DNA of 64,000 nt. Origin: Escherichia coli (GTDB taxonomy: Bacteria; Pseudomonadota; Gammaproteobacteria; Enterobacterales; Enterobacteriaceae). Each line of letters starts with the position of its first letter. Within the stretch, counting starts at the first letter, position 1. The notes under the pieces were generated by a model, which was not told the DNA's origin, did not search any database, and saw nothing but the letters and a program-made list of their open reading frames with translations. Both the position numbers and the translations under genes were made by a program. Shown here piece by piece: positions 20,589-63,522 of this stretch. The stretch lies in assembly GCF_046105845.1 (NCBI RefSeq), contig NZ_CP151004.1; one strand, given 5' to 3'.

Positions 20589-20668
20589 TTTTTATATATT
20601 CTCTGTGGCAAATATTGCTAAACAATGCCCGGGGATTAATTTTTATTACTCACGGAAAGATTTAAATA

Positions 20669-23476: not shown

Positions 23477-23494
23477 CAATTAAGGCTGCAATCA

Positions 23495-26181: not shown

Positions 26182-26184
26182 CAA

Positions 26185-29310: not shown

Positions 29311-29417
29311 GGGGGATCTTAAGCAATCAGAAGCCAATGACTACGCATTTTTATAAGCCGGATCATGAAGTTAGACGGCAATTAAGTAACACTAACGTTT
29401 AAGGTGAAAAGTGAAAT

Positions 29418-31070: not shown

Positions 31071-31079
31071 GGAAAATGA

Positions 31080-31682
31080 ATGGAAGCGCGAATTTCAACT
31101 GAACGGCATGTGCAGCGCCAGCAGAAATTGAAGGAACAGGTCGATACGCGCGTCGCGGCGGCGATAGAGAAAAAAGGGATCTTGATTGTTTTCACCGGCA
31201 ACGGCAAAGGGAAATCCACTGCCGCGTTTGGTACTGTAACGCGCGCGGTGGGTCATGGCAAAACGGTGGGGGTTGCGCAGTACATCAAGGGGCAATGGGA
31301 CAACGGCGAATACAACCTTCTCCAGCCGCTGGGGGTTGAGTTTCATATTATGGGAACCGGTTTTACCTGGGAGACACAGAACCGGCAAGCGGATATCGAC
31401 GCGGCGAAAGAGGTCTGGTCGGAAAGCAAACGGATGCTGGCTGACAAGCGTTACGACTTAGTGGTGCTTGATGAGCTGACCTATATGCTGGCTTACCATT
31501 ATCTGGATACCGAAGAAGTGATCGCTTCTCTGCAAAACCGCCCGGCACAACAAAGTGTCATTGTCACCGGACGCGGTTGCCACAGTCAGATATTAAAAAT
31601 GGCGGATACGGTCAGCGAAATCCGCCCCGTCAAACATGCTTTTGATAACGGCATTCAGGCCCAGCCGGGTATCGACTGGTAA
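31080..31682 (+). CDS. cob(I)yrinic acid a,c-diamide / cob(I)alamin adenosyltransferase (BtuR/CobA/CobO family)
   Basis: 200 aa; GNGKGKSTAAFG P-loop and collinear similarity to E. coli BtuR; AAGGAAA RBS. Confidence 0.9.
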   Translation: MEARISTERHVQRQQKLKEQVDTRVAAAIEKKGILIVFTGNGKGKSTAAFGTVTRAVGHGKTVGVAQYIKGQWDNGEYNLLQPLGVEFHIMGTGFTWETQNRQADIDAAKEVWSESKRMLADKRYDLVVLDELTYMLAYHYLDTEEVIASLQNRPAQQSVIVTGRGCHSQILKMADTVSEIRPVKHAFDNGIQAQPGIDW

Positions 31683-31685
31683 TAA

Positions 31686-31717
31686 CTGCGCCTGGCATCC
31701 CGCCAGGCGCAGGTTTT
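31686..31717. terminator. bidirectional hairpin terminator between the operon end and the convergent LysR gene
   Basis: ctgcgcctgg-catcccg-ccaggcgcag stem-loop followed by tttt; overlaps the LysR stop codon on the other strand. Confidence 0.55.
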
Positions 31718-32621
31718 ACATCTCCTGCGGTACAACCGATTTCGCCAGCAACCATTCACGAAATTGCTGCAAGTGCGGTGAGTCAGACTTCTCTTCCTGC
31801 CACGTCATAATAAAACGATTACCGGTACGAATAGGCACATCACAGGGGATCACCATATCGCCACTATCCAAATCATGTTGAATAGCGAAACGTGGTAACA
31901 GCGCCACGCCGAGATTCGAGCGCACGGCGGCAATCAGCATTGAAAGCAAATCGAAACGTGGTCCGTTGTTGACCAGCGGACTGCTAACGCCAGATAAGGC
32001 AAACCACTCTTCCCAGCCAGTAATACGGGTACTTTGATGCAGAAGTGGTAACTCTGTAAGCAGTTCTGCCACTGACAGTTTTTGATCGGACATTGTAAGC
32101 AAACTGCCGCTGCATACCGGCAAAATCTCCTCTTCAAAGAGATATTCTACTTCCGCCCAGGGCGCGCAAAAATTTTCGCGCATAATGACAGCATCGTACT
32201 CCCGATTAAGAAAATCGCCGTTATTAGCTAAAGAGTGAATATTAACAATAATATCGGAATGTAACTTTGTGAATTCATGTAAATTTGGGATTAACCAGTG
32301 GGTACTAAACGTAGGATTCACGGCAAGTTCAATAACCTTAACCGTAGGCTGCCAGGTCATAATGGTATTGGTATCGCGTTCCAGCTTATTTAATGTTTCT
32401 TTTACTATCCCCAGGTAATACTTCCCTGCATCATTAAGAAAAATACGTTTTTTAGAGTGTGAAAATAACGGAGTATGTAAAAATTCCTCCAGCGCACTCA
32501 CTTGTCTGAATACTGCACTTTGGGTCAACGCTAACTCCTCTGCCGCTCTGGTATAACTTTCATGACGTGCGACGACCTCAAAAGTCACCAGCAGCTCCGT
32601 TTTAGGTATTTTTCCTCGCAT
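31716..32621 (-). CDS. LysR-family transcriptional regulator
   Basis: 301 aa; N-terminal wHTH (ELLVTFEVVARHESYTRAAEELALTQSAVFRQVSALEEFL) plus substrate-binding domain; convergent with the operon. Confidence 0.9.
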   Translation of the reverse strand: MRGKIPKTELLVTFEVVARHESYTRAAEELALTQSAVFRQVSALEEFLHTPLFSHSKKRIFLNDAGKYYLGIVKETLNKLERDTNTIMTWQPTVKVIELAVNPTFSTHWLIPNLHEFTKLHSDIIVNIHSLANNGDFLNREYDAVIMRENFCAPWAEVEYLFEEEILPVCSGSLLTMSDQKLSVAELLTELPLLHQSTRITGWEEWFALSGVSSPLVNNGPRFDLLSMLIAAVRSNLGVALLPRFAIQHDLDSGDMVIPCDVPIRTGNRFIMTWQEEKSDSPHLQQFREWLLAKSVVPQEM

Positions 32622-43586: not shown

Positions 43587-44870
43587 ATGGCTGATACAAA
43601 AGCAAAACTCACCCTCAACGGGGACACAGCTGTTGAACTGGATGTGCTGAAAGGCACGCTGGGTCAAGATGTTATTGATATCCGTACTCTCGGTTCAAAA
43701 GGTGTGTTCACCTTTGACCCAGGCTTCACTTCAACCGCATCCTGCGAATCTAAAATTACTTTTATTGATGGTGATGAAGGTATTTTGCTGCACCGCGGTT
43801 TCCCGATCGATCAGCTGGCGACCGATTCTAACTACCTGGAAGTTTGTTACATCCTGCTGAATGGTGAAAAACCGACTCAGGAACAGTATGACGAATTTAA
43901 AACTACGGTGACCCGTCATACCATGATCCACGAGCAGATTACCCGTCTGTTCCATGCTTTCCGTCGCGACTCGCATCCAATGGCAGTCATGTGTGGTATT
44001 ACCGGCGCGCTGGCGGCGTTCTATCACGACTCGCTGGATGTTAACAATCCTCGTCATCGTGAAATTGCCGCGTTCCGCCTGCTGTCGAAAATGCCGACCA
44101 TGGCCGCGATGTGTTACAAGTATTCCATTGGTCAGCCATTTGTTTACCCGCGCAACGATCTCTCCTATGCCGGTAACTTCCTGAATATGATGTTCTCCAC
44201 GCCGTGCGAACCGTATGAAGTTAATCCGATTCTGGAACGTGCTATGGACCGTATTCTGATCCTGCACGCTGACCATGAACAGAACGCCTCTACCTCCACC
44301 GTGCGTACCGCTGGCTCTTCGGGGGCGAACCCGTTTGCCTGTATCGCAGCAGGTATTGCTTCACTGTGGGGACCTGCGCACGGTGGTGCTAACGAAGCGG
44401 CGCTGAAAATGCTGGAAGAAATCAGCTCCGTTAAACACATTCCGGAATTTGTTCGTCGTGCGAAAGATAAAAATGACTCTTTCCGCCTGATGGGCTTCGG
44501 TCACCGCGTATACAAAAATTACGACCCGCGCGCCACCGTAATGCGTGAAACCTGCCATGAAGTGCTGAAAGAGCTGGGCACCAAAGATGACCTGCTGGAA
44601 GTGGCTATGGAGCTGGAAAACATCGCGCTGAACGACCCGTACTTTATCGAGAAGAAACTCTATCCGAACGTCGATTTCTACTCTGGTATCATCCTGAAAG
44701 CGATGGGTATTCCGTCTTCTATGTTCACCGTGATCTTCGCTATGGCACGCACCGTTGGCTGGATCGCCCACTGGAGCGAAATGCACAGTGACGGTATGAA
44801 GATTGCCCGTCCGCGTCAACTGTATACAGGATATGAAAAACGCGACTTTAAAAGCGACATCAAGCGTTAA
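43587..44870 (+). CDS. gltA: citrate synthase (type II)
   Basis: 427 aa; matches E. coli GltA; divergent from sdhC across a roughly 700 bp regulatory region. Confidence 0.97.
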
Positions 44871-44898
44871 TGGTTGATTGCTAAGCCGTTTACTTTCC

Positions 44899-44931
44899 GG
44901 ACCCGCCTTTAATAGAGCGGGTTCTTTTTTA
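44899..44931 (+). terminator. rho-independent terminator after gltA
   Basis: Hairpin acccgc...gcgggt followed by ttttttat. Confidence 0.6.
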
Positions 44932-44998
44932 TATGGCTGAACATAATAAATTGTAAAAATTAAACCAGATGCAAATACCCATTAATAAGGTGAAAAAA

Positions 44999-45012
44999 TG
45001 TGACAAGTCACA
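44999..45012. promoter_or_regulatory. perfect palindrome TGTGAC-AA-GTCACA upstream of the fimbrial operon (candidate operator)
   Basis: 14-bp perfect inverted repeat about 250 bp upstream of ybgD in an AT-rich region; the 2-bp spacer does not fit CRP (N6) geometry. Confidence 0.3.
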
Positions 45013-45259
45013 TACTGAGCAGAATGATAAGTTTATTTTTATACTTTCATGCCGGTAGCATTGTTAACCCAATGAAAATCATGCATATCCATCCCACCCC
45101 ATCCTTCATCTCATTAAACAATAAATTTATGCACTCAATTATTCCATTCTTTATATAACAAGCTTTTTAATATTGTTAAATAAAACCAAATACATTCAAC
45201 TGTCAGTTAATATATTCTTGCCTCGCAACACTCTATCTCATTATTTAAAGGACTCAGCT

Positions 45260-45826
45260 ATGTTTAAAGGACAAAAAACATTGGCCGCACTGGCCGTATC
45301 TCTGCTGTTCACTGCACCTGTTTATGCGGCTGATGAAGGATCCGGTGAAATTCACTTTAAAGGTGAAGTTATTGAAGCACCGTGTGAAATACATCAGGAT
45401 GATATTGATAAAGAAGTTGAACTCGGTCAGGTGACCACCAGCCACATTAATCAGTCGCATCACAGCGATGCCGTTGCTGTCGACCTGCGCTTAGTCAACT
45501 GCGATCTGGAAAACTCCAACAACGGTTCCGGCGGCAAGATTTCTAAAGTTGCAGTCACCTTTGACAGCTCAGCGAAAACCACCGGCGCAGATCCGATTCT
45601 CAACAACACCAGCACGGGTGAAGCGACCGGTGTCGGCGTGCGTTTAATGAATAAAGATCAAAGCAATATCGTTTTAGGCACCGCTACTCCAGATATCGAC
45701 CTGGCACCAACCTCCAGCGAACAAACGTTAAATTTCTTTGCGTGGATGGAACAAATTGATCAGGCTACGCCCGTAACACCAGGCGCAGTTACGGCGAATG
45801 CGACCTACGTACTGGATTATAAATAA
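45260..45826 (+). CDS. ybgD: fimbrial major subunit-like protein
   Basis: 188 aa from MFKGQKTLAALAVSLLFTAPVYA (signal peptide) with AAGGA RBS; fimbrial-subunit size; first gene of a chaperone-usher operon. Confidence 0.9.
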   Translation: MFKGQKTLAALAVSLLFTAPVYAADEGSGEIHFKGEVIEAPCEIHQDDIDKEVELGQVTTSHINQSHHSDAVAVDLRLVNCDLENSNNGSGGKISKVAVTFDSSAKTTGADPILNNTSTGEATGVGVRLMNKDQSNIVLGTATPDIDLAPTSSEQTLNFFAWMEQIDQATPVTPGAVTANATYVLDYK

Positions 45827-45876
45827 GTATCACTTTGGCGGCGTCATCGCCGCCTTTCTTCAAATATTTATCAGGT

Positions 45877-48336
45877 ATGGACACCGTGAATATTTATCGA
45901 CTCTCTTTTATATCCTGCCTGGTCATGGCGATACCTTCCGCATTGGCGGTCGAATTCAACCTGAATGTCCTCGATAAATCGATGCGAGATCGCATTGATA
46001 TTTCATTATTAAAGGAAAAAGGGGGCATTGCTCCCGGTGAATATTTTGTTAGCGTTGCAGTAAATAACAACCAAATCAGTAACGGACAAAAAATTGACTG
46101 GAAAAAGAACGGTGACCAAACCATTCCGTGTATTAATGATTTACTGGTAGATAAATTTGGTTTAAAACCTGAAGTTCGTCAGTCGTTACCACGGTTAAAC
46201 CAGTGCGTCGATTTTAGCTCCCGGCCTGAAATTCTCTTCATTTTTGATCAGGCTAGCCAGCAACTGAATATCACTATTCCACAAGCCTGGCTGGCGTGGC
46301 ACTCAGATAACTGGACTCCCCCCTCAACATGGAAAGAAGGTGTCGCCGGCGTCCTGATGGATTACAACCTGTTTGCAAGCAGCTACCGCCCACAGGATGG
46401 TAGCAACAGCACTAACCTGAACGCCTATGGAACAGCCGGAATTAACGCCGGGGCATGGCGCTTACGCAGTGATTACCAGCTTAATAAGACCGATAGCGAA
46501 GATAACCATGACCAGTCAGGCGGAATATCGCGCACCTATCTTTTTCGTCCATTACCGCAATTAGGCTCTAAGTTAACCCTCGGCGAAACCGATTTCAGTT
46601 CCAATATTTTCGACGGCTTTTCTTATACCGGCGCGGCACTGGCAAGTGACGATCGGATGTTACCGTGGGAGCTACGCGGCTACGCCCCACAAATCAGCGG
46701 CATTGCACAAACCAACGCCACCGTCACCGTGAGTCACTCAGGGCGAGTTATTTACCAGAAAAAAGTCCCACCAGGTCCGTTTATCATTGATGACCTTAAT
46801 CAGTCCGTCCAGGGTACGTTGGATGTCAAAGTGACGGAAGAAGATGGTCGGGTGAACAATTTCCAGGTTTCGGCAGCATCGACGCCCTTCCTGACTCGCC
46901 AGGGACAGGTTCGCTATAAATTGGCCGCGGGTCAGCCACGGCCCTCCATGTCACATCAAACTGAAAATGAAACCTTTTTTAGCAATGAAGTTTCCTGGGG
47001 GATGCTGTCAAATACCTCGCTGTACGGCGGCCTGCTGATTTCGGGTGACGACTACCATTCTGCCGCAATGGGTATCGGGCAAAATATGCTCTGGCTTGGT
47101 GCATTGTCGTTTGATGTCACCTGGGCCAGTAGTCAGTTTGATACTCAGCAGGACGAGCGGGGCTTAAGTTACCGCTTTAATTACAGCAAACAAGTGGATG
47201 CCACTAACAGCACGATTTCGCTCGCCGCTTATCGCTTTTCAGATCGTCATTTTCACAGCTACGCCAACTATCTGGATCACAAATACAACGACAACGATGC
47301 GCAGGACGAAAAACAGACGATCAGCTTATCCGTGGGGCAACCGATTACCCCACTGAACCTCAATCTGTACGCCAACCTGCTGCATCAAACCTGGTGGAAT
47401 GCAGACGCCTCCACGACCGCCAACATCACGGCGGGTTTTAATGTTGATATTGGTAACTGGAGAGATATCTCGATCTCGACGTCATTCAATACAACCCATT
47501 ACGAAGATAAAGATCGCGACAATCAGATTTACCTGTCGATTTCGCTTCCCTTCGGTAACGGGGGGCGGGTCGGTTATGACATGCAAAACAGTAGTCAAAG
47601 CACCACGCACCGCATGTCGTGGAATGATACGTTGGATGAACGTAATAGCTGGGGCATGTCTACCGGACTGCAATCCGACCGTCCGGATAATGGAGCCCAG
47701 GTGAGCGGTAACTATCAGCACCTGAGTTCAGCGGGTGAGTGGGATATTTCTGGTACCTATGCCGCCAATGATTACAGTTCCGTCAGCAGCAGCTGGAGCG
47801 GTTCTTTCACGGCAACTCAATATGGTGCGGCGTTCCATCGTCGCAGCTCCACCAATGAACCACGTCTGATGGTCAGTACCGATGGCGTGGCAGATATTCC
47901 GGTTCAGGGCCATCTCGACTACACCAACCATTTTGGCATTGCGGTGGTGCCGTTGATTTCCAGTTATCAGCCTTCCACCGTGGCGGTGAACATGAATGAC
48001 TTACCCAACGGCGTAACAGTGGCAGAAAACGTTATCAAAGAAACGTGGATTGAAGGCGCGATAGGTTACAAATCACTGGCTTCCCGTTCCGGTAAAGACG
48101 TTAACGTCATCATTCGCAACGCCAGCGGTCAGTTCCCTCCCCTCGGTGCGGATATCCGCCAGGATGATAGCAGCATTAGCGTGGGGATGGTTGGCGAGGA
48201 AGGACACGCCTGGTTAAGTGGAGTCTCTGAAAATCAACAATTTACCGTGGTCTGGGGTGATAGCCAGCGTTGCTCGATCCATCTTCCTGAACATATGGAA
48301 GACACCGCAAATCGCCTGATTTTACCTTGTCATTAA
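45877..48336 (+). CDS. ybgQ: fimbrial outer-membrane usher protein
   Basis: About 819 aa from MDTVNIYRLSFISCLVMAIPSALA; start is ambiguous (TTG 45835, ATG 45877, GTG 45886); usher-family length. Confidence 0.88.
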   Translation: MDTVNIYRLSFISCLVMAIPSALAVEFNLNVLDKSMRDRIDISLLKEKGGIAPGEYFVSVAVNNNQISNGQKIDWKKNGDQTIPCINDLLVDKFGLKPEVRQSLPRLNQCVDFSSRPEILFIFDQASQQLNITIPQAWLAWHSDNWTPPSTWKEGVAGVLMDYNLFASSYRPQDGSNSTNLNAYGTAGINAGAWRLRSDYQLNKTDSEDNHDQSGGISRTYLFRPLPQLGSKLTLGETDFSSNIFDGFSYTGAALASDDRMLPWELRGYAPQISGIAQTNATVTVSHSGRVIYQKKVPPGPFIIDDLNQSVQGTLDVKVTEEDGRVNNFQVSAASTPFLTRQGQVRYKLAAGQPRPSMSHQTENETFFSNEVSWGMLSNTSLYGGLLISGDDYHSAAMGIGQNMLWLGALSFDVTWASSQFDTQQDERGLSYRFNYSKQVDATNSTISLAAYRFSDRHFHSYANYLDHKYNDNDAQDEKQTISLSVGQPITPLNLNLYANLLHQTWWNADASTTANITAGFNVDIGNWRDISISTSFNTTHYEDKDRDNQIYLSISLPFGNGGRVGYDMQNSSQSTTHRMSWNDTLDERNSWGMSTGLQSDRPDNGAQVSGNYQHLSSAGEWDISGTYAANDYSSVSSSWSGSFTATQYGAAFHRRSSTNEPRLMVSTDGVADIPVQGHLDYTNHFGIAVVPLISSYQPSTVAVNMNDLPNGVTVAENVIKETWIEGAIGYKSLASRSGKDVNVIIRNASGQFPPLGADIRQDDSSISVGMVGEEGHAWLSGVSENQQFTVVWGDSQRCSIHLPEHMEDTANRLILPCH

Positions 48337-48351
48337 TTAAGGAAATGAAAA

Positions 48352-49083
48352 ATGACATTTATGAAAGGACTTCCCCTTTTGTTGTTGATTGCCAGTCTCT
48401 GCAGCTACGCTGCGCTACAACCCGATCGCACTCGCATTGTGTTTAACGCTAATGATAAAGCCACCAGCCTGCGAGTGGATAATCGTAGCGATAAACTCCC
48501 CTACCTCGCTTATTCCTGGCTCGAAAATGAAAAAGGGGAGAAAAGCGATGATCTTCTGGTTGCCCTGCCACCGATACAACGTCTGGAACCGAAAGCAACA
48601 ACGCAGGTACGGATAGTAAAGCAAGTCTCGACCACAAAATTACCGGGCGATCGCGAAACGCTATTTTTCTACAATATGCGTGAAATTCCTCCCGCCCCGG
48701 AAAAAAATAGCGACCATGCCGTTCTGCAAGTCGCCATTCAGAGTCGTATCAAGGTATTCTGGCGACCGGCTGCATTACGCAAGAAAGCAGGAGAAAAGGT
48801 CGAACTGCAGTTACAGGTCAGCCAGCAGGGCAACCAACTGACACTGAAAAATCCTACCGCGTATTATCTGACCATTGCCTATCTGGGGAGAAATGAAAAA
48901 GGCGTTCTCCCGGGCTTCAAAACCGTGATGGTTGCGCCTTTTAGTACAGTAATTACAAACACCGGAAGTTATAGCGGCAGTCAGTTTTATCTCGGTTATA
49001 TGGATGATTACGGCGCGTTACGCATGACGACGCTCAATTGCAACGGACATTGCCGTTTACAAGCAGTGGAGGCGAAGAAATGA
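48352..49083 (+). CDS. ybgP: fimbrial periplasmic chaperone (PapD-like)
   Basis: 243 aa with signal peptide; chaperone-sized protein between usher and adhesin genes. Confidence 0.9.
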
Positions 49084-50141
49084 GTACTGGCAAAGGATTG
49101 TTGCTCGTCATCTGTCTGTTATTTCTGCCATTGAAGTCTGCGCTAGCGCTGAACTGCTATTTTGGTACTTCCGGTGGAACGGTAGAAAAATCGGAAGCGA
49201 TTCAACCCTTTGCTGTGCCAGGTAATGCCAAACCCGGCGATAAGATTTGGGAATCTGACGATATTAAAATTCCCGTCTATTGTGACAACAATACCAACGG
49301 CAACTTTGAAAGTGAGCATGTCTACGCCTGGGTAAACCCCTACCCGGGGGTGCAGGATCGCTATTATCAACTCGGCGTAACTTACAATGGCGTTGATTAT
49401 GACGCCAACCAGGGAAAAAGCCGCATCGACACTAACCAGTGTATCGACAGTAAGAACATTGACATTTATACCCCTGAGCAGATTATCGCGATGGGATGGC
49501 AGAACAAAATTTGCTCGGGCGATCCCGCTAATATTCATATGTCGCGTACCTTTCTCGCTCGCATGCGGTTATACGTCAAAATACGAGAAATGCCTCCGCA
49601 TGATTATCAAAGTACGCTTAGCGACTATATCGTCGTGCAATTTGACGGTGCCGGTAGCGTTAACGAAGACCCTACCGCCCAAAACCTGAAATATCATATT
49701 ACTGGTCTGGAAAACATTCGCGTGCTGGATTGCAGCGTCAATTTTTCTATTTCACCAGAAACACAGGTGATTGATTTTGGTAAATTTAATTTGCTGGATA
49801 TTCGTCGCCACACAATGTCGAAAACATTCAGTATTAAGACGACAAAATCACAAAATGACCAATGCACCGACGGATTTAAAGTCAGTTCCTCCTTTTATAC
49901 CGAAGAAACGTTGGTTGAAGAAGATAAAGCATTGTTGATTGGTAATGGTCTGAAGCTACGTTTGCTGGATGAAAACGCCTCGCCTTATACCTTCAATAAA
50001 TATGCTGAATACGCCGATTTCACCAGCGATATGCTGATCTACGAAAAAACCTATACGGCTGAACTTTCGTCCATTCCAGGTACCCCCATCGAGGCTGGCC
50101 CCTTCGATACAGTGGTGCTTTTTAAGATTAACTATAACTGA
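49080..50141 (+). CDS. ybgO: fimbrial adhesin-like (tip) protein
   Basis: 353 aa from [23 protein letters not shown]; ATGA overlap with ybgP; GGAGG RBS. Confidence 0.85.
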
Positions 50142-50292
50142 TTTGCCATGGTGTCCTTTGCAGCCGGAAAGGGCATCTCTTTCAGAAAATTGCTGATTTT
50201 CCCCTTTTCCTTGATTGCTGTTATTTTTTCCTGGCCCGGCTTTCTTTATGCTGTATCGATACACCAAAGAGAAAATAATGAGGGAGCGAAGG

Positions 50293-51339
50293 ATGCCAGT
50301 TTTGCAGTGGGGAATGTTATGTGTGCTATCACTTCTCCTTTCTATTGGTTTCCTCGCGGTACATCTCCCGGCGGCACTATTACTTGGGCCGATGATCGCC
50401 GGGATCATCTTTAGTATGCGCGGAATTACTCTGCAACTTCCCCGCTCCGCTTTTCTCGCCGCCCAGGCCATTCTTGGCTGCATGATTGCGCAAAACCTCA
50501 CTGGTTCGATTCTCACCACCCTGGCCGTCAACTGGCCGATCGTGCTTGCAATTTTACTGGTGACGCTGCTTTCCAGCGCCATCGTGGGTTGGTTATTGGT
50601 GCGCTATAGCTCACTGCCTGGAAATACCGGTGCCTGGGGTTCTTCTCCTGGCGGCGCGGCGGCAATGGTCGCTATGGCGCAAGATTACGGCGCAGATATT
50701 CGCCTGGTGGCGTTTATGCAATATCTGCGAGTGCTGTTCGTCGCAGGGGCCGCTGTTCTGGTCACCCGCATGATGCTGGGCGATAACGCTGAAGCGGTTA
50801 ACCAGCAGATCGTCTGGTTCCCGCCAGTGAGCATTAATCTCCTGCTTACGATTTTGCTCGCGGTCGTTGCCGGTACGGCGGGATGCTTGCTACGTCTTCC
50901 TTCCGGCACGATGCTCATCCCGATGCTGGCGGGCGCAGTGCTCCAGTCTGGTCAGCTCATCACGATTGAACTCCCGGAATGGCTGCTGGCGATGGCGTAT
51001 ATGGCAATTGGCTGGAGGATTGGTCTTGGTTTCGATAAGCAAATCTTACTGCGAGCATTGCGCCCACTGCCACAAATCTTGCTGTCGATTTTTGCTCTGC
51101 TGGCTATTTGTGCAGGTATGGCGTGGGGGCTGACCCGGTTTATGCATATTGATTTTATGACCGCCTACCTCGCCACCAGTCCCGGCGGGCTTGATACCGT
51201 GGCGGTCATCGCCGCAGGGAGCAATGCCGATATGGCGCTTATTATGGCGATGCAAACCCTGCGCCTGTTCAGTATTTTGCTGACGGGGCCAGCCATTGCG
51301 CGGTTTATTTCAACCTATGCGCCGAAGCGGTCGGCCTAG
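50293..51339 (+). CDS. abrB: AbrB-family membrane transporter (putative regulator of aidB expression)
   Basis: 348 aa from [20 protein letters not shown] with AGGGAG RBS; polytopic membrane protein; ORF-track start 26 codons upstream rejected. Confidence 0.9.
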
Positions 51340-52127
51340 TGCTGGCAGCCTGGACACCAGTAAAACGGGCGCGAGGACAACGTGGTTTTCTCAATGATGC
51401 TGCCACAGCGTTCACACGGTTCGCCATCACGATGAAAAACCTTAAAGCGAAACAACGCCCCATGATGTTTATTCTCATCCACCTGCCCCCGCGTAGCGTA
51501 AGAAAGTCGAGGAATATCCAGTAACGCGTGTGCGAGTGCATCCAGTTGCGCCGCACTGAGATCTTTCGCTTTATGATTGCCGGTTAACCCCACCTGCCAG
51601 AGGATCTCCACCCGCAAATAATTGCCAAGTCCTGCCAGAAACGCCTGATCGAGCAGTAATCCAGCAAACTGACGGTTACGAAAGCGCGGCGACAATAATC
51701 GTTCCTTTACCACCTCCGGCGTCAGATTCGGATCCAGCACATCGGGGCCAACGCGTTGTAAAAACGGATGCGTGGTCAGTTGTTCCGGGGTCAACATCTC
51801 AATATCCGAGGCGCTATAAAGCAGAATGGTTTTGTCAGCCGTTTGCAGTTTTACCCGCAATACTCGCGTGGTCTGCGGCTCTTCGCCGGTATCAACCACG
51901 CGCCAGACGCCGTAAAGCTGATTATGGCTGTAGAGCGTTAAACCGTTGGAAAAATGAGTTAACAACGCCTTACCTCGCGTTTCCACATGGGTAACGTGTT
52001 GACCGATAAGTTGTGATTGATAAGGTTCTAACTGCGGGAAGGCAAACCAGACATCAGTTAGTGGTTTGCCTTTGATCGCCGCCTCCAGGTTATCCGCTGC
52101 ACGGCGGATCTCCGGGCCTTCAGGCAT
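51336..52127 (-). CDS. nei: endonuclease VIII (DNA glycosylase/AP lyase)
   Basis: 263 aa; N-terminal MPEGPEI catalytic motif, C-terminal zinc finger CxxC...CxxC; 4-bp convergent overlap with abrB. Confidence 0.96.
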
Positions 52128-52162
52128 GGTGATATCCTTTTTTCATTCTTTATTAAGCGGGG

Positions 52163-52897
52163 TTATGCTGCGACAACAATCCCCTTTTCGGCAAATGTAG
52201 AGCGTAGTCGGCGGGCGAATGCCAGTGCGTGTTCTCCATCGCCATGCAGGCAGACCGTTTGCGCCGTGACCGTTGCCCATTCGCCGTTGATACTTTTGAC
52301 TCTGCCGTGTTGCACCATCTCCAACGTTTGCGCCAGCGCCTGTTCTTCGTTTTCAATCAACGCGCCTGGCTGGCTTCGCGGCACCAGCGAGCCGTCAGCC
52401 TGATAACCGCGATCGGCAAACACTTCCTCGCGCGTTATCAGACCATATCGCTTGCCTGCACGAATCAGCTCGCTTCCCGCCAGCCCGACGAGAATCAATG
52501 ACGGATCGCAAGCGTATACCGCTCTGGCGATGGCGTCTGCCAGTTGTGCCTCTTTCGCCGCCTGGTTGTATAACATGCCGTGCGGTTTGACATGACGCAT
52601 TACGCCCCCTTGTGCACGGGTAATCGCTGCCAGCGCGCCAATTTGATACAGCGTCTGGGCGTAAACGGTTTCTGGCGGCAGCTGCATGGCACTGCGACCA
52701 AAATTTTCCCGGTCGGGAAAACTCGGGTGAGCGCCAATCGCGACACCATTTTTTATTGCTTCACGCACGCAAGCCTGCATGATTTGCGCATCGCCTGCAT
52801 GAAATCCACAAGCAATATTGGCAGAGGAAACCAGCGTTAATAGCTCTGCGTCGCTGGCGCAGCCTTCGCCCAGATCGGCGTTCAGGTCAATTTTCAT
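52163..52897 (-). CDS. pxpA: 5-oxoprolinase subunit A (LamB/YcsF family)
   Basis: 244 aa; matches E. coli YbgL/PxpA. Confidence 0.93.
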
Positions 52898-53819
52898 TGT
52901 GCAGCCGCCACGCTAATTGTTCGAAATAACGTTGTTGATCTTGCCGCGCTTTCAGTGCCTCTTCCAGTGAACACTGGACAAAATGAATCGGCTGACCGAG
53001 CGGAATTTGCGCCAGATGGTACATATCAGCCTCAATGATACAGGCAATACGCGGATAACCACCGGTGGTCTGTGCGTCGTTCATCAATACAATCGGCTGG
53101 CCGTTATGCGGCACTTGCACCACACCCGGCAACAAACCGTGAGATAACAGTTCGCGATCGGTGGTGCGTTTTAAAATTTGCCCCTGTAAGCGATAGCCCA
53201 TGCGGTTACTTTGCGGACTAAGCTGCCAGGGCGAACGCCAGAATGCATCCTGCGAGGCGCGATCGAACTCATGATATTCCGGCCCCGGCAAGGCGCGAAT
53301 GCGGTTGCCCCACAGCAGCTGTTTAACGCCCTGCGCTTCCATAAAATCACGCTTCGATTTACCCATCGGGAGTCGGTCACCATCCTTCAGTAAACGGCCT
53401 TCCAGCCCGCCAATCCCCACTTTGAGATCGGTACTGCATGACCCCATTACCGGCGGAACATCAATACCACCCGCGACCGCCAGATAACTGCGCATCCCGT
53501 GCAGCGGGCGTTTAAGCGTTAAACGCTGGCCTGCTTTCATCGGCAATCGCCAGCCAGTCCAGACGGCATTATCATCCAGCCGCGCTTCGCAACCTGCCCC
53601 CGTCAGGGCAAACCACCCATCAGTTTCGAACTCTACCGTTAACTGACCGAGCGTTATCTCCAGCGCGGGGGCATTGGCGTCATTACCCACCAGCAGGTTA
53701 GCAATGCGTAACGCAGGCATATCCAGTGCGCCGCAGTGGCTGATACCCGACTGGCGAAAACCGTGACGACCGCCATCCTGCACAGTGGTATACATGCCCG
53801 CACGAATAATCTTCAGCAT
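52887..53819 (-). CDS. pxpC: 5-oxoprolinase subunit C
   Basis: 310 aa; matches E. coli YbgK/PxpC. Confidence 0.93.
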
Positions 53820-54469
53820 ACTCCCTCCTTCTGCGGTACAAAGCGCACGCTGTCTCCCGGACGTAATAAGATGGGTTCGTCACGCGCCGGATCAAACAGG
53901 CTGAGTGAGGTATGACCAATCAACTGCCAGCCACCCGGCGTTGCCAGCGGATAAACACCAGTCTGTGGCCCGCCGATCCCGACAGAACCTGCCGGAACGA
54001 GCAAGCGCGGTTCAGCGCGCCGTGGCGTGTGTATTTGTTCCGGCAAACTCCCGAGATACGGGAAGCCCGGTTGAAAACCTAAAAACCAGACCACGTATTC
54101 CACGGAGGAGTGTAATTCAACAACCTGTTTCTCACTCAACCCACAATGCGCCGCGACCACCGCTAAATCCGGTCCGCCTGCACCACCGTAAACCACCGGA
54201 ATTTCAATAAAGCGAGACTCCGGCTCCAGCGCCTCACTCTCCTCCCACCAGCGTTGCAAACGCTCTATGGCATCCAGCGCCAGCGACTCAGGATTACGCA
54301 AAATCACCGTGATATTGTTCATGCCGGGAATGGCTTCAACCACATTCGGCATATCCACCAGACGCTGTGCCAGTCGCCAGATCCGTTTCTGGCTAGCCAG
54401 CGTCACCGGCGGTTCCAGTTCCAGCACTACCGCCGTTTCACCTATCAGATAACAACGCGCTCGTTGCAC
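53813..54469 (-). CDS. pxpB: 5-oxoprolinase subunit B
   Basis: 218 aa; matches E. coli YbgJ/PxpB. Confidence 0.93.
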
Positions 54470-54491
54470 TTTCGATCCCTCTGATTATTCG

Positions 54492-55235
54492 TTATGCAGG
54501 ATTAGGAATATCAATAAAGGTCACATCAAGATCGGTATTTTCATTCAGCCACTCGCTCAACGCGCGAATACCACCACGTTCAGTGGCATGGTGACCCGCA
54601 GCATAAAAATGCAATCCCTGCTCGCGGGCTGAATGAATGGTCTGTTCAGAAACTTCGCCAGTAATAAAAGCATCCACGCCAAAACGCGCGGCGCTATCGA
54701 TAAAACTTTGCCCGCCGCCCGTGCACCAGGCAACGCGCTGGACCACCTCAGGTCCGGTATCGCCACACCATAACGGCTTACGTCCCAGACGCGCTTCAAT
54801 CCAGGAGGCTAGTTCCAGTCCCGGCACAGGCATGGTCAGTTCGCCCCACGGCACCAACGGCTCAATTTCGCCCATGACCGTGATCCCCAGTAACGCCGCC
54901 AGCTGTGCGTTATTGCCCAGCTCAGGATGTGCGTCAAGCGGCAAATGCCAGCCATACAGGTTGATATCATTTGCCAGCAACGTTTTTAAACGGTTACGCT
55001 TCATGCCGCGAATGACCGGAGATTCGCCTTTCCAGAAGTAGCCATGATGCACAATGACCGCATCCGCGCCCAGACGCACTGCCTCATCGAGCAAAGCCTG
55101 GCTGGCAGTGACACCGGTAACAATTTTTTGCACCGTCTCTTTGCCTTCCACCTGCAAACCATTCGGCGCGTAATCACTAATCGCCGCGCTGTTCAGTTTT
55201 TCGTTAATCAGTTGTTCCAGTTCGGTGTTTTTCAT
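54492..55235 (-). CDS. ybgI: NIF3-family metal-binding protein YbgI (GTP cyclohydrolase 1 type 2 homolog)
   Basis: 247 aa; matches E. coli YbgI. Confidence 0.93.
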   Translation of the reverse strand: MKNTELEQLINEKLNSAAISDYAPNGLQVEGKETVQKIVTGVTASQALLDEAVRLGADAVIVHHGYFWKGESPVIRGMKRNRLKTLLANDINLYGWHLPLDAHPELGNNAQLAALLGITVMGEIEPLVPWGELTMPVPGLELASWIEARLGRKPLWCGDTGPEVVQRVAWCTGGGQSFIDSAARFGVDAFITGEVSEQTIHSAREQGLHFYAAGHHATERGGIRALSEWLNENTDLDVTFIDIPNPA

Positions 55236-55322
55236 CTTCGCGCCTTCCGTATTCTGATAGCTACACCGTTAACATAGCGTTACCTCGCCTGTTCGTCGAT
55301 AGCCAATCTTTTGACATATTAA

Positions 55323-56987
<1,665 letters not shown>

Positions 56988-57001
56988 CAGGCCAGCACCG
57001 A

Positions 57002-57135
57002 TGCCTGATGCGACGCTTAATGCGTCTTATCAGGCCTGGATTTCCCTGCAATATATTGAATTTGCACTATTTGCCAGGCCGGAGAAGGCGTTCACGCAGT
57101 ATCCGGCATCCGGGCAAGATTGCCTGACGCGTCTG
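57002..57135. repeat. BIME/REP cluster between convergent dtpD and phr
   Basis: gcctgatgcgacgcttaatgcgtcttatcaggcc followed by further REP-like palindromes (gccggagaaggcg...ccggcatccggg, ttgcctgacgcgtctg). Confidence 0.7.
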
Positions 57136-58554
57136 TTATTTCCCCTTCCTCGCCGCCTCATACGCTGCCAACGTTCGTACTCTCGCTTCTTTGTGATCGA
57201 CAATCGGTTGCGGATAATCCAGCGTCACACCTGATTTATCTGCCCACTTCCACGGCTCATGCACCGCTTTCCCTGGTACATCGCGCAACTCTGGTAGCCA
57301 CCGGCGGATAAACTCGCCTTCGCGGTCAAATTTCTCGCCCTGGGTTGTCGGGTTAAAAATACGAAAATACGGCGCTGCATCGGTTCCGGTTGAAGCGGCC
57401 CACTGCCAGCCACCGTTATTGGCTGCCAAATCACCATCAATCAGCTGCGACACGAAATATCGCTCGCCTTCGCGCCAGTCGATCAATAAATCTTTCACCA
57501 AAAAACTGGCTGTAATCATCCGTAGCCGGTTATGCATCCAGCCAGTGCTGTTAAGCTGACGCATGGCAGCATCAACAATCGGGTATCCCGTTTTACCTTC
57601 TTGCCAGGCTTTAAAATGGGCGGGATTGCGCTGCCACTGCACACGATCCGTCCAGACAATAAACGGACGATGTTTACACAGCGAAGGATAATACGTCATC
57701 AAATGGCGGTAGAACTCGCGCCAGATCAACTCATTAAGCCAGACACTACCGGCCCCATCTTCCAGCGCCTGCGGCTGTTCCGCCAACAGGCGATGTAGAC
57801 ACTGGCGAGGCGATAACCCGCCCGTTGCCAGGCTGGCGGACAAACGGCTGGTACCTTCAACTGCCGGAAAATCTCGTTGTTGCTCATACTCTCCGGCACC
57901 GTTCTGGCAAAACTGGCGTAATTGCGCAATCGCCGCTTTTTCTTCCACCGGGAAATGCGCAGTATCGAAAGGCTGACGAGGATAACTCAGCGTAATGGAT
58001 GGCGCGGGAGCTATCGATCCGCTACTACGTACTTTTGGCGCAGCGACGCACTCCGGCATCCCTTCCCGCAACCGTTTCAGCCAGGCGTTTTTAAATGGCG
58101 TAAAGACTTTGTACATCTCATGATTGCCAGTCATCACCGTCCCCGGCGGCAGGATCACGCTGTCGTCAAATCCTTCACACACCACGTTACGCAGCGTTCT
58201 CTCAACCTGCACATCCCGCGCCCGCTCATTCACCTCATACTGATAGTTATAAAAAAGATGAGTAACGCTGTTTTCCGCGCACACCTGTTTAACTATTTCG
58301 ACGCTGGCGGCAAAGTCATCCACTTCACGGAACAATAAAGGAATGCCTTTTTCCGCCAGCGCGATTTGTAGCCCATTCAGTTGAGCATTGATAAGTTCAG
58401 CCTGACGCGGCGACACATTATGCGCCGCCCACTGGCGTGGGGTAGCGATATACAACGCCAGCACGCGCGCAGACGAATTGCGGCAGGCGGCAGCCAGCGC
58501 GAGATTATCGTGCTGACGTAAATCCTGGCGAAACCAGACCAGATGGGTAGTCAT
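57136..58554 (-). CDS. phr: deoxyribodipyrimidine photolyase
   Basis: 472 aa; matches E. coli Phr. Confidence 0.97.
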   Translation of the reverse strand: MTTHLVWFRQDLRQHDNLALAAACRNSSARVLALYIATPRQWAAHNVSPRQAELINAQLNGLQIALAEKGIPLLFREVDDFAASVEIVKQVCAENSVTHLFYNYQYEVNERARDVQVERTLRNVVCEGFDDSVILPPGTVMTGNHEMYKVFTPFKNAWLKRLREGMPECVAAPKVRSSGSIAPAPSITLSYPRQPFDTAHFPVEEKAAIAQLRQFCQNGAGEYEQQRDFPAVEGTSRLSASLATGGLSPRQCLHRLLAEQPQALEDGAGSVWLNELIWREFYRHLMTYYPSLCKHRPFIVWTDRVQWQRNPAHFKAWQEGKTGYPIVDAAMRQLNSTGWMHNRLRMITASFLVKDLLIDWREGERYFVSQLIDGDLAANNGGWQWAASTGTDAAPYFRIFNPTTQGEKFDREGEFIRRWLPELRDVPGKAVHEPWKWADKSGVTLDYPQPIVDHKEARVRTLAAYEAARKGK

Positions 58555-59060
58555 AAAACTCCTGCATGGCGCAAGTTAATCACACGCGGCCAAAGTTCGA
58601 AATAACGCTGCCCTGAAAGCCAGGCGTCAGGATAAAGCGCCATATAGTGTTTGATACGCATCAGCGGCGCAAGAAGCGGTTGCTCGCCACGGCGATAACT
58701 GTCGATAAGCGCCGCCAGCTGCTGGCGTTCTGTGGAATCAATATGCGGGCGAAAATACCCCTGAACGTGCATCAAAACGTTGGTGTGATCGCGCGGGTTG
58801 GCGGGATGAGAAAGCAAAACAATTACGCGTTGGCGGTACTGGCTGTAAAAATCATCCAGATTTTGCCACTGATGAATATCAGCCACAAACGGGCCAAGTT
58901 TGCGGTATTCCGGCTGAGAATGAGCCAGAAAGACGAGTTTATAGCGGCTGTGATAATCGAGAAGCGCCCCGCGCGTTAAGCCTCGCTCTTTAAGACGGTA
59001 TAACTCCTGCAAAGCAAAAATGCGAATAAGGGTGCTGTCATCAAATCGTTGTAGATTCAT
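58551..59060 (-). CDS. ybgA: DUF1722-family protein YbgA
   Basis: 169 aa from MNLQRFDDSTLIRIFALQELYRL with AGGAG RBS; 4-bp overlap with phr; ORF-track start 23 codons upstream rejected. Confidence 0.9.
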   Translation of the reverse strand: MNLQRFDDSTLIRIFALQELYRLKERGLTRGALLDYHSRYKLVFLAHSQPEYRKLGPFVADIHQWQNLDDFYSQYRQRVIVLLSHPANPRDHTNVLMHVQGYFRPHIDSTERQQLAALIDSYRRGEQPLLAPLMRIKHYMALYPDAWLSGQRYFELWPRVINLRHAGVL

Positions 59061-59680
59061 TACTGCTCCTGAACGGTTTACAGGAGTAAGTGTAGACGGC
59101 GAAAAGAAAAAAACCGCCAGCGTTTCCACTAGCGGTTTTCAATGTATTCAAAACTCAGCAATCAGTAAAAATCACCAGTTGCCTTTTCGGCCTGATCCAT
59201 CCACACCGGTTTATCGCTGGTTTTCGACCAGACGCGGTGCAGGTAGCTGTAAAAGCGGGCGCGGTCTTTCCAGAAAAGCATGAAAGGCAGCGCCAGAACG
59301 CCCGCTGCAACCGCATAAGTACGGCGTAAAAAGATAAGCCATGCAGGATATTCTCTGTAGAGTTCCATACTTTTCTCCCCCTTTTGTATCTACCCGGTGA
59401 ATGGCACCGGAAAAATGAATTTGTTTATCTGATGAAAATAGTACCGCCTTTTGTGTAATTTTACTACTCATCCGACCACTTATTTTTGCTTATTGATGGT
59501 TTATTTACATTCACCGTGTAATTAAGTTACATGAAAGTTAAATTAATACTAATCATTAGTTAAATCATGGCTTTTGCCATTTTTATACTTTTTTTACACC
59601 CCGCCCGCAGATTTTTGCGAAATCTTTGCAGCCAGAATTCTACCCTTCCGGTATCACTTTTAGGCCACTGGAGGTGCACT

Positions 59681-59770
59681 GTGAGTGCAGGCGTGATAGC
59701 CGGCGTGTTGCTGGTGTTTTTATTACTGGGTTATCTGGTTTATGCCCTGATCAATGCGGAGGCGTTCTGA
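59681..59770 (+). CDS. kdpF: Kdp ATPase small hydrophobic subunit KdpF (29 aa)
   Basis: GTG start 6 nt after GGAGG; [29 protein letters not shown]; stop overlaps the kdpA ATG. Confidence 0.85.
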
Positions 59771-61443
59771 TGACTGCGCAAGGGTTCTTACTGATCGCCA
59801 CGTTTTTACTGGTGTTAATGGTGCTGGCACGTCCTTTAGGCAGCGGGCTGGCGCGGCTGATTAATGACATACCTCTTCCCGGTACAGCGGGTGTTGAACG
59901 CGTACTCTTTCGTTTACCTGGCGTCTCTGACAGTGAGATGAACTGGAAGCAGTATCTCTGTGCCATTCTCGGCCTGAACATGCTGGGGCTGGCGGTGCTG
60001 TTTTTTATGTTGCTCGGTCAGCACTATCTGCCGCTTAATCCACAGCAGTTGCCAGGGCTGTCATGGGATCTGGCGCTGAATACCGCCGTCAGCTTTGTCA
60101 CTAATACCAACTGGCAATCTTACAGCGGTGAAACCACGTTGAGCTATTTCAGCCAGATGGCTGGCTTAACGGTGCAAAACTTTCTTTCTGCCGCCAGCGG
60201 GATTGCGGTGATTTTTGCCCTCATCCGTGCATTTACCCGCCAGGGCATGAGCACACTCGGGAATGCCTGGGTCGATCTGCTACGCATCACGTTATGGGTG
60301 CTAGTCCCTGTGGCGTTGTTGATCGCACTGTTTTTTATTCAACAAGGTGCATTGCAAAACTTTCTGCCCTATCAGGCGGTGAATACCGTTGAAGGAGCGC
60401 AACAGCTGTTACCCATGGGGCCAGTAGCTTCTCAGGAAGCGATCAAAATGCTCGGTACTAACGGCGGTGGCTTCTTTAATGCCAACTCCTCGCATCCGTT
60501 TGAAAACCCAACCGCACTGACCAACTTCGTGCAAATGCTGGCGATCTTCTTGATCCCAACGGCACTGTGCTTTGCCTTTGGCGAAGTGGCGGGCGATCGC
60601 CGTCAGGGGCGCATGTTGCTGTGGGCGATGTCGGTGATTTTTGTCATCTGCGTAGGCGTGGTGATGTGGGCAGAAGTTCAGGGTAATCCTCATCTGCTGG
60701 CACTGGGCGCGGACAGCAGCATCAATATGGAAGGTAAAGAGAGCCGTTTCGGCGTGCTGGTCAGTAGCCTGTTTGCGGTCGTGACTACGGCGGCTTCCTG
60801 CGGCGCGGTGATTGCGATGCATGATTCGTTTACCGCCCCCGGTGGCATGGTGCCGATGTGGCTGATGCAAATTGGTGAAGTGGTATTCGGCGGTGTCGGT
60901 TCTGGTCTTTACGGCATGATGCTGTTTGTCCTGCTGGCGGTGTTTATTGCCGGGCTGATGATTGGTCGTACACCGGAATATCTGGGTAAAAAAATCGACG
61001 TACGCGAGATGAAACTGACCGCACTGGCGATTCTGGTCACCCCGACGCTGGTGCTGATGGGCGCGGCGCTGGCAATGATGACCGACGCCGGACGTAGCGC
61101 CATGCTCAACCCTGGCCCGCATGGTTTTAGCGAAGTGCTGTACGCCGTGTCATCCGCCGCTAACAACAACGGAAGCGCCTTTGCCGGATTAAGCGCCAAC
61201 TCTCCATTCTGGAACTGTTTACTGGCGTTCTGCATGTTTGTCGGTCGCTTCGGGGTGATTATCCCGGTGATGGCAATTGCCGGTTCGCTGGTGAGTAAAA
61301 AGAGCCAACCCGCCAGCTCCGGCACGCTGCCAACGCACGGCCCGCTGTTTGTTGGCCTGTTAATCGGCACCGTATTGCTGGTTGGCGCACTGACCTTTAT
61401 CCCTGCCCTGGCGCTTGGTCCGGTGGCGGAATATCTCTCCTGA
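59770..61443 (+). CDS. kdpA: potassium-transporting ATPase subunit A
   Basis: 557 aa from [24 protein letters not shown]; ORF-track upstream start rejected. Confidence 0.96.
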
Positions 61444-61465
61444 TGATATTGAGTGAGCACTGAAT

Positions 61466-63514
61466 ATGAGTCGTAAACAACTGGCGCTATTCGAACCAAC
61501 ACTTGTCGTTCAGGCGCTGAAAGAAGCGGTGAAAAAATTAAACCCGCAGGCGCAATGGCGCAATCCGGTGATGTTTATCGTCTGGATCGGCAGTCTGCTG
61601 ACCACCTTTATTAGCATCGCAATGGCAAGCGGTGCGATGCCTGGCAATGTGCTGTTTAGCGCGGCAATTAGCGGCTGGCTGTGGGTCACCGTACTGTTCG
61701 CTAATTTCGCCGAGGCGCTGGCAGAAGGCCGCAGTAAAGCGCAGGCCAACAGTCTGAAAGGGGTGAAAAAAACTGCCTTTGCCCGCAAGCTTCGTGAGCC
61801 GAAATATGGCGCTGCGGCGGACAAAGTTCCTGCCGATCAACTGCGTAAAGGCGATATCGTACTGGTAGAAGCTGGCGATATTATCCCCTGCGATGGTGAA
61901 GTCATTGAAGGCGGCGCATCGGTCGATGAAAGCGCCATCACCGGGGAATCGGCTCCGGTGATCCGTGAATCCGGCGGCGATTTTGCCTCCGTCACCGGCG
62001 GCACGCGTATTCTTTCTGACTGGCTGGTAATTGAGTGCAGCGTTAACCCCGGCGAGACATTTCTGGATAGGATGATCGCGATGGTGGAAGGCGCACAGCG
62101 ACGCAAAACGCCGAACGAGATTGCCCTGACCATTCTCCTGATTGCCCTGACTATCGTCTTTTTACTGGCAACCGCCACGCTGTGGCCGTTTTCCGCGTGG
62201 GGCGGTAATGCAGTCAGCGTAACGGTACTGGTGGCGCTGCTGGTCTGTCTGATCCCAACGACCATTGGCGGTCTGTTGTCAGCGATCGGCGTCGCCGGGA
62301 TGAGTCGGATGCTGGGCGCGAATGTGATTGCCACCAGCGGACGTGCAGTTGAAGCGGCGGGTGACGTTGACGTCCTGCTGCTGGATAAAACCGGCACCAT
62401 CACACTCGGTAACCGTCAGGCGTCGGAGTTTATCCCCGCGCAGGGCGTGGATGAAAAAACGCTGGCTGACGCCGCACAACTGGCTTCGCTGGCTGATGAA
62501 ACGCCGGAAGGCCGCAGTATTGTGATCCTCGCCAAGCAACGTTTTAACCTGCGCGAGCGCGATGTGCAGTCGCTCCATGCCACCTTTGTACCGTTTACTG
62601 CGCAAAGCCGGATGAGCGGGATCAACATCGACAACCGCATGATCCGTAAAGGTTCTGTCGATGCCATTCGCCGCCATGTTGAGGCTAACGGTGGTCACTT
62701 CCCTGCCGATGTCGATCAAAAAGTCGATCAGGTTGCGCGTCAGGGGGCCACGCCGCTGGTGGTGGTGGAAGGTTCCCGTGTGCTGGGCGTTATTGCGCTG
62801 AAAGATATCGTCAAAGGCGGTATTAAAGAGCGCTTCGCCCAGCTGCGCAAAATGGGCATTAAAACGGTGATGATTACCGGCGATAACCGTCTGACTGCCG
62901 CCGCGATTGCTGCGGAAGCGGGCGTCGATGATTTCCTCGCCGAAGCGACACCGGAGGCCAAGCTGGCATTGATTCGTCAGTATCAGGCAGAAGGCCGTTT
63001 AGTGGCGATGACCGGCGACGGCACCAACGATGCTCCGGCGCTGGCGCAGGCAGATGTCGCGGTGGCGATGAACTCCGGTACTCAGGCGGCGAAAGAAGCG
63101 GGCAATATGGTGGATCTCGACTCTAACCCGACCAAGTTGATCGAGGTGGTGCATATTGGCAAACAGATGCTGATGACCCGTGGCTCGCTCACTACCTTCA
63201 GCATTGCCAACGATGTAGCGAAATACTTCGCCATTATTCCGGCGGCGTTCGCGGCAACATATCCGCAGTTAAATGCGCTGAACATCATGCGCCTGCATTC
63301 GCCCGACTCCGCAATCCTCAGTGCGGTCATTTTCAACGCCTTGATTATCGTCTTTTTGATTCCCCTAGCGTTAAAAGGCGTGAGTTATAAACCGCTTACC
63401 GCTTCTGCCATGTTGCGCCGTAACTTATGGATTTACGGTCTGGGTGGGCTGCTGGTGCCATTTATTGGTATCAAAGTCATTGATTTACTGCTGACCGTTT
63501 GCGGTCTGGTGTGA
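61466..63514 (+). CDS. kdpB: potassium-transporting P-type ATPase subunit B
   Basis: 682 aa; DKTGT phosphorylation motif and TGDN/GDGxND motifs; matches E. coli KdpB. Confidence 0.97.
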
Positions 63515-63522
63515 GGTTTACC

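Follow-up and report, generated by a model that had tools for sequence, protein, structure and literature searches.

Is the fimbrial gene cluster that follows gltA in this Escherichia coli genome an intact chaperone-usher operon, and does the AT-rich DNA in front of it carry an operator? Both questions were raised by an initial annotation of the 64,000-nucleotide (nt) stretch of contig NZ_CP151004.1 analyzed here (the window), in which a complete ybgDQPO operon preceded by a perfect 14-bp palindrome was proposed. Our data indicated that positions 44871-50141 almost certainly hold, in intact form, the known ybgDQPO (Ybg) chaperone-usher fimbrial operon of E. coli, situated as usual between gltA and abrB and of a type that is normally silent. 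The operon itself has been known before and is not new; the Ybg type is defined by its locus and its usher (PMC3559732).

Four genes are encoded on the plus strand: ybgD for the major fimbrial subunit (45260-45826, 188 amino acids [aa]), ybgQ for the outer-membrane usher (45877-48336 from its ATG), ybgP for a periplasmic PapD-like chaperone (48352-49083, 243 aa), and ybgO for a two-domain tip adhesin (49080-50141, 353 aa). The usher has 819 aa if counted from ATG 45877 and 816 aa from GTG 45886. According to the open reading frame (ORF) listing over 44871-50141, none of the four frames contains an internal stop. The lengths of 188, 819, 243, and 353 aa are shared by four of the six other alleles that we extracted, and the K-12 and 1217KP alleles have an usher of 818 aa and a chaperone of 242 aa; the length of YbgD is constant across all seven alleles compared. 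In Pfam searches, YbgD matched the Fimbrial family (PF00419) with 105.5 bits over residues 31-188, YbgQ cleared the gathering cut-offs of PapC_N (114 bits), Usher (623 bits, profile positions 2-548 of 549), and PapC_C (48.8 bits), and YbgP matched PapD_N (118 bits) and PapD_C (52.7 bits). The locus therefore holds the full set of a chaperone-usher system, namely, a three-part usher, a two-domain PapD-like chaperone, a Fimbrial-domain pilin, and a two-domain adhesin. Moreover, the 5.27-kb region found a match in 4762 of 5426 complete E. coli genomes, 4155 of which cover at least 80% of it, and the RefSeq names given there are ybgQ, ybgP, and ybgO. The gene order gltA...abrB-nei-pxpA is common to the window, K-12, O157:H7, and others. 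Domain content, orthology, synteny, and open frames thus bear out the operon and the gene roles as initially proposed. The starts had also been described as coupled, which applies strictly to ybgP and ybgO only: the ATGA at 49080-49083 is indeed the ybgP stop codon overlapping the ybgO start codon, whereas ybgQ and ybgP are separated by 15 nt and ybgD and ybgQ by 50 nt with a hairpin inside.

The N termini were then inspected by eye for signal-peptide cleavage sites, and each showed the n-region, h-region, and AXA-type site of a signal peptide. YbgD begins with the signal MFKGQKTLAALAVSLLFTAPVYA, its mature chain starts with ADEGSGEIHFKGEV, and a donor-strand region (ADEGSGEIHFKGEVIEAPC) follows the cleavage site. 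The N terminus of YbgQ reads M(DTV)NIYRLSFISCLVMAIPSALA followed by the mature VEFNLNVLD; that of YbgP is signal-peptide-like, with 20 residues before the cleavage site; and YbgO carries a 23-residue signal peptide in front of a mature start at LNCYFG. The sites in the usher and in YbgO are further supported, because the PapC_N match begins at usher residue 26 and the crystallized YbgO domain at L24. Along with the lengths and the open frames, these N termini agree with the view that all four genes are full length and encode signal peptides.

YbgO is laid out as a signal peptide (residues 1-23), a receptor-binding domain (about 24-217), and a pilin domain (about 218-353), the last of which scored 23.2 bits against the Pfam Fimbrial family, just under the cut-off of 25.6. 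A search of solved structures revealed that PDB chains 9RX0_A and 9RWW_A, both entitled 'Fimbrial protein', equal residues 24-217 of the window YbgO (window 49080-49730, plus strand) except for T30S, T34S, and P52L, and the two chains can be taken, from this near identity, as the K-12-type YbgO receptor-binding domain. They begin at L24, consistent with cleavage after ALA23, and comprise the receptor-binding domain alone, whereas the window protein has two domains. More distant relatives are 9RWU/9RWV and 9RWE. No paper naming YbgO together with the 9RX0 and 9RWW structures was found in the searchable literature. An AlphaFold2 model built from 36 homologues (mean predicted local distance difference test score, 88.6) has two beta-rich domains, and among PDB entries Foldseek ranked the two-domain tip adhesins FimH, LpfD, CupB6, CsuE, PapG, and CfaE first (probability 1.00), followed by single pilin domains. 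Solved domain, model, and fold matches together identify YbgO as a two-domain tip adhesin.

We compared the operon with two well-known systems. In K-12, ybgDQPO lies at the same locus with the same gene order and domains and with lengths of 188/818/242/353 aa versus 188/819/243/353 aa in the window. Amino acid identity between the two is 98.3% for YbgO, 94.3% for YbgQ, and 90.1% for YbgP, and the differences are concentrated in YbgD (79%; synonymous divergence [dS], 1.56) and in the upstream region, which is 65-67% identical, of the same length, and lacks at the homologous position the inverted repeat discussed below. Type 1 fimbriae (fimAICDFGH), which carry FimH as their tip adhesin and are the archetype of gamma-clade chaperone-usher systems, share with the window a PapD-like chaperone, a PapC/FimD-like usher, a FimA-like pilin, and a two-domain adhesin. 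In the fold search, FimH came closest to YbgO, and the window pilin has an N-terminal donor strand of the type GxIHFKGEVIxAxC that resembles FimA, as judged by eye. However, the window has two structural subunits only, without FimF/G-type adaptors or FimI, its usher gene precedes the chaperone gene, and neither an invertible fimS switch nor recombinase genes accompany it. In addition, the receptor-binding domain of YbgO shows no sequence similarity to that of FimH (9% identity in the fold alignment). The usher presumably falls in the gamma clade (gamma4 in the scheme of Nuccio and Baumler 2007).

To describe how the operon would work, we drew on the well-studied chaperone-usher pathway. YbgD, the major pilin, and YbgO, the two-domain adhesin, would be exported by Sec and capped in the periplasm by the PapD-like chaperone YbgP through donor-strand complementation. 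The usher YbgQ would then polymerize the subunits adhesin first via donor-strand exchange, yielding a YbgD fiber tipped by YbgO. A hairpin 3' of ybgD probably sets a high ratio of pilin to usher mRNA, and the AT-rich 389-bp region upstream is of the DNA type silenced by H-NS, such that the operon would probably be silent in laboratory culture. H-NS is known as a repressor of many chaperone-usher fimbriae of commensal strains (PMC3559732; see also PMC5797941), and H-NS silencing of ybg is probable and compatible with the AT-rich upstream region. Seven cryptic chaperone-usher operons of K-12 are poorly expressed in the laboratory and six are functional if driven constitutively, as relayed by a later paper (Korea et al. 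2010 via PMC5797941), and ybgD is upregulated on BolA overproduction (PMC4337573). For the window, the expression state, the H-NS control, the function of the hairpin, and the receptor specificity are inferred only.

The hairpin, GGCGGCG-TCAT-CGCCGCC followed by TTTCTT, lies at 45837-45860 on the plus strand and was picked up as a terminator-like match. It folds with -15.4 kcal/mol (z = -4.39), and none of 200 shuffled sequences did as well. Even the O157 allele (77% identical) retains the GGCGGC/GCCGCC stem, with a different loop and different flanks. The element thus shows the GC-rich stem-loop, the T-run, and the conservation among alleles that mark an intrinsic terminator. Judging from comparable chaperone-usher operons, its probable role is that of a partial terminator or attenuator, or else of an mRNA-stabilizing 3' hairpin, which would raise pilin over usher expression.

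The start codon of the usher, which was annotated as ambiguous among TTG, ATG, and GTG, was indeed found to have three in-frame candidates (TTG 45835, ATG 45877, and GTG 45886), and the frame is open from the TTG onward. The TTG was nevertheless ruled out by two observations: the O157 allele carries two stop codons in the usher frame 5' of the ATG, and TTG 45835 sits at the foot of the strong, conserved hairpin and overlaps its stem. The other two codons are invariant in all eight alleles compared, and both have weak ribosome-binding contexts, an AGG 1 nt upstream of the ATG and a GGA 4 nt upstream of the GTG. RefSeq takes the equivalent ATG as the ybgQ start; the 815-aa K-12 YbgQ of UniProt matches the GTG. 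By alignment, the start is narrowed to ATG or GTG, and conservation does not separate the two. The mature usher would be the same from either codon, because the three-residue difference falls in the cleaved signal peptide.

How the locus varies in the population was examined next. gltA is 98-99.5% identical to that of all E. coli genomes, and identity falls sharply just past the end of this gene and is regained in abrB. Over the operon, the best complete genome is 97.5% identical, and other classes stand at about 94%, 90% (K-12), and 77% (O157). The variation is mosaic: YbgO is 98.3% but YbgD only 79% identical to K-12, and in genome 2017.18.02CC a ybgD that is 96.5% identical to the window in nucleotides stands behind an upstream region that is 63% identical. 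At least four upstream allele classes were distinguished, 45-67% identical and all 386-390 bp long; these identities were taken from direct alignments, sliding-window values being depressed by gap columns and left unused. By these comparisons, ybgD and its promoter region are exchanged independently of ybgO, within a deeply polymorphic, recombining locus that lies between conserved housekeeping genes. A high variant density has been reported for ybgP and ybgQ in Shiga toxin-producing E. coli (PMC12547504), and Ybg has been classed as a 'core-associated' type that is frequently not intact and that most uropathogenic E. coli (UPEC) lack (PMC3559732). Exact copies of the window proteins occur in public E. 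coli assemblies in very different numbers, with YbgD in at least 1000 contigs, YbgO in 128, YbgP in 32, and the usher in 5.

Despite this divergence, the genes are constrained. Against the six other alleles, the ratio of nonsynonymous to synonymous divergence (dN/dS) is 0.01-0.13 for each of the four genes (0.06-0.12 for ybgQ and 0.07-0.13 for ybgP), and relative to the O157 allele every one of them has a dS of 1.5-1.8, i.e., synonymous saturation. For ybgD versus K-12, at 79% aa identity, dN/dS is 0.10 at a dS of 1.56. Reading frames kept despite saturated synonymous divergence argue for purifying selection on all four ybg genes and against the operon being a relic. Proteins about 60% identical to YbgO were also found in Enterobacter, Citrobacter, Salmonella, and Kluyvera.

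We then turned to the region between gltA and ybgD (44871-45259, plus strand), presumed to hold the ybgD promoter and regulatory sequences. Its 389 bp have a GC content of 32.4% versus 50.8% for the whole window, with 200-bp windows at 30-35%, so that the description of about 390 bp of AT-rich DNA was accurate. The first 60 bp or so are filled by the intrinsic terminator of gltA (44899-44930, plus strand; stem 44899-44924 and T-run 44925-44930), which folds with -21.1 kcal/mol (z = -3.86) and whose CCCGCC/GGCGGG stem is kept in all upstream allele classes. Besides this stem and the Shine-Dalgarno sequence, the block most clearly conserved by eye in the four classes is AATATTnTTA. It is overlapped by the right arm of an 11-nt inverted repeat (45113-45123/45171-45181; 91% complementary, arms 47 nt apart), and as a candidate for a conserved promoter or regulatory element this block is preferable to the palindrome first noted. 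An exact 10-nt direct repeat, TTTAAAGGAC, flanks the ybgD start codon at 45244-45253 and 45263-45272, with the result that the Shine-Dalgarno context recurs as ybgD codons 2-4. An invertible switch like fimS was rejected, as the upstream region has weak inverted repeats only (the best being the 11-nt pair just mentioned) and no recombinase gene was found nearby. A small ORF starting from the repeat (GTG, 45000-45158, 52 aa) lies in the least conserved intergenic part and was set aside as unsupported. Rfam at gathering thresholds returned no RNA element in 44871-50141.

The supposed palindrome proved to be an imperfect inverted repeat, ATGTGAC-AA-GTCACAT at 44998-45013, with 7-bp arms around a nonsymmetric AA center. 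The 14 bp originally singled out (44999-45012) read TGTGACAAGTCACA, and the reverse complement is TGTGACTTGTCACA, hence there is no perfect palindrome. Simulations of the 389-bp region with a first-order Markov model yielded at least one inverted repeat with 7-bp arms at a probability of 0.16 for spacers of up to 2 nt, 0.24 for up to 4 nt, and 0.39 for up to 10 nt; in fact, the window contains 20 such repeats with a spacer of at most 2 nt. As an RNA hairpin the repeat is weak (-5 kcal/mol, z = -0.68) and no better than shuffled sequences. In comparison with the CRP operator TGTGA-N6-TCACA, it shares both half-sites and the flanking AAA and T (AAATGTGA...TCACAT), but its half-sites are N4 rather than N6 apart, a spacer unfit for a CRP dimer, and the site is not conserved; a CRP/FNR site was rejected for this spacing. 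No TGTGA-N6-TCACA occurs anywhere in the window.

Whether the repeat is maintained across strains had been put forward as a check, and the outcome was negative; the sequence part of the refuting condition given with it, absence from other strains, therefore applies. K-12 reads TAGAACAGCTCAAA at the homologous position, and alignment did not find the repeat in the K-12, 2017.18.02CC/O22:H8, or O157 upstream classes. Within its own class, we searched the complete genomes with two 40-mers, designed such that a single mismatch within the repeat leaves megablast without a seed. The repeat is intact in 787 of the 5426 genomes, and 551 others, including the E. coli B derivative NEBExpress, have TGAGAC in an otherwise identical context, a T-to-A change that breaks the left arm. 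The two groups account for the 1339 genomes with the window-type upstream allele, and the repeat is thus broken in 41% of that class. Most alleles lack the repeat altogether and many genomes of its own class have it broken, and it is thus no conserved operator. Judged by these alignments, the sequence at 44998-45013 most likely arose by chance and is particular to certain lineages, and the operator suggested at first, being imperfect, within chance, and nonconserved, is not supported.

The same region revealed a large deletion. In UPEC-774U (NZ_CP049852.1, 7001-7700), a 4,748-bp deletion joins the equivalents of window positions 44999 and 49748 (45000-49747 lost), removing ybgD, ybgQ, ybgP, and two-thirds of ybgO; what remains of ybgO is 396 bp with an internal stop, annotated as a pseudogene. 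In all, 504 of the 5426 genomes (about 9%) carry this very junction. The left flank of the deletion is the window-type upstream allele (97% identity), and its left end cuts 1-2 nt into the repeat's left arm. This end in a repeat arm hints at a hairpin-associated deletion, but it comes from a single event.

Several other explanations of these data were weighed. A dimeric regulator might bind ATGTGAC-AA-GTCACAT over a -35-like GTGACA and control ybgD in strains with the same upstream allele. The symmetric 7-bp arms with their perfect CRP-type half-sites, the persistence of the repeat in hundreds of genomes, and the fact that the sole plus-strand promoter-like match takes the GTGACA of the repeat as its -35-like element all speak for such an operator. 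Nevertheless, we regard it as very unlikely, given that the repeat does not exceed chance expectation, that its N4 spacing departs from the N6 needed by CRP/FNR-type dimers, that three other upstream classes including K-12 do without it, and that the arm-breaking T-to-A change is so frequent in its own class; furthermore, no regulator gene lies in or adjoins the operon, and promoter-like matches are fewer than expected from shuffling. A broader version, in which the promoter-plus-ybgD segment is an old, maintained set of alternative cassettes, its upstream classes are partly uncoupled by recombination from deeply diverged pilin alleles and have their own regulatory inputs, the N4 repeat is the operator of some further regulator in the window's class, and TGTGAC/TGAGAC (787 versus 551) is a natural on/off variant, deserves hardly any credence. 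Alternatively, the repeat may matter for DNA structure: prone to form a hairpin or a cruciform, it would have supplied the left end-point of the 4.75-kb deletion in a B2/extraintestinal pathogenic E. coli-type lineage. The position of the deletion end in the left arm, the junction shared by 504 genomes, and the matching left flank fit this idea, but the shared junction reflects a single inherited event, an end-point would coincide with the repeat in about 4-8% of cases by position alone (16 bp in 389), the junction shows a microhomology of only 1-2 nt, and the hairpin is weak. We consider a structural role improbable and retain the interpretation of the repeat as a chance feature.

It could also be argued that the whole operon is a decaying relic, its frames still open but unselected and no fimbria made. 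The deletion common to 504 genomes, the occurrence of IS1 insertions (H9), a ybgO pseudogene in Shigella flexneri (PMC6854044), and the failure to find a strong upstream promoter point in that direction. Against it stand the dN/dS values of 0.01-0.13 in all four genes at a dS of up to 1.8 and the YbgO-like adhesins of other genera; the relic scenario is weakened because neutral decay over such divergence would not keep the frames, and we find it extremely unlikely. Three points do weigh against our own interpretation of an intact, normally silent operon with a fortuitous repeat upstream: both half-sites of the repeat (TGTGA/TCACA) are perfect CRP types and kept in 787 genomes; a sigma-70 promoter scan of the upstream region gave two weak matches, none convincing, versus 3.1 expected from shuffles; and for Ybg in particular, functionality is a suggestion drawn from its conserved sequence. 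On balance, an intact copy of the known Ybg operon remains by far the most probable reading.

Beyond the operon, the ORF listing places gltA at 43587-44870 (plus strand), abrB at 50293-51339 (plus strand), and nei at 51336-52127 (minus strand). Genomic systematic evolution of ligands by exponential enrichment (SELEX) in K-12 gave peaks of the sigma-32, sigma-28, and sigma-24 holoenzymes inside ybgO, upstream of abrB (PMC5493296), and one or more abrB promoters may lie in the 3' end of ybgO, at about 49900-50290 of the window. The 13.9 kb 3' of ybgO (50142-64000) reach at best 97.4-97.9% identity among the 5426 complete genomes and lack a rearrangement hot spot (RHS) element that the matching genomes carry there; by this comparison, the strain would come from a poorly represented lineage or be mosaic at 50142-64000. 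At the other side, an island of about 12 kb (19644-32621) between cydAB and sucD encodes a MutL-like protein, glutamate mutase E, methylaspartate ammonia-lyase, an AtuA-like protein, a Na:dicarboxylate symporter, a class-I fumarase (mesaconase-like), a cob(I)alamin adenosyltransferase, and a LysR regulator. This island is the methylaspartate route of glutamate fermentation, which is known from O157:H7 but is not known from K-12. At 8652-9709 and 10636-10774 (both minus strand), Rfam identified seven tRNA genes with RtT elements interspersed, along with the CpoB/ybgF RNA thermometer, which is nothing out of the ordinary for E. coli.

Taken together, the significance of this copy is small, as it belongs to a catalogued 'core-associated' fimbrial type whose adhesin receptor-binding domain has already been solved. 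The palindrome should not be passed on as a candidate operator, and the TTG can be dropped as an usher start. The population picture, with a mosaic locus, purifying selection, and a single deletion in about 9% of the genomes, is relevant to the use of ybg genes as adhesiome or genome-wide association study markers.

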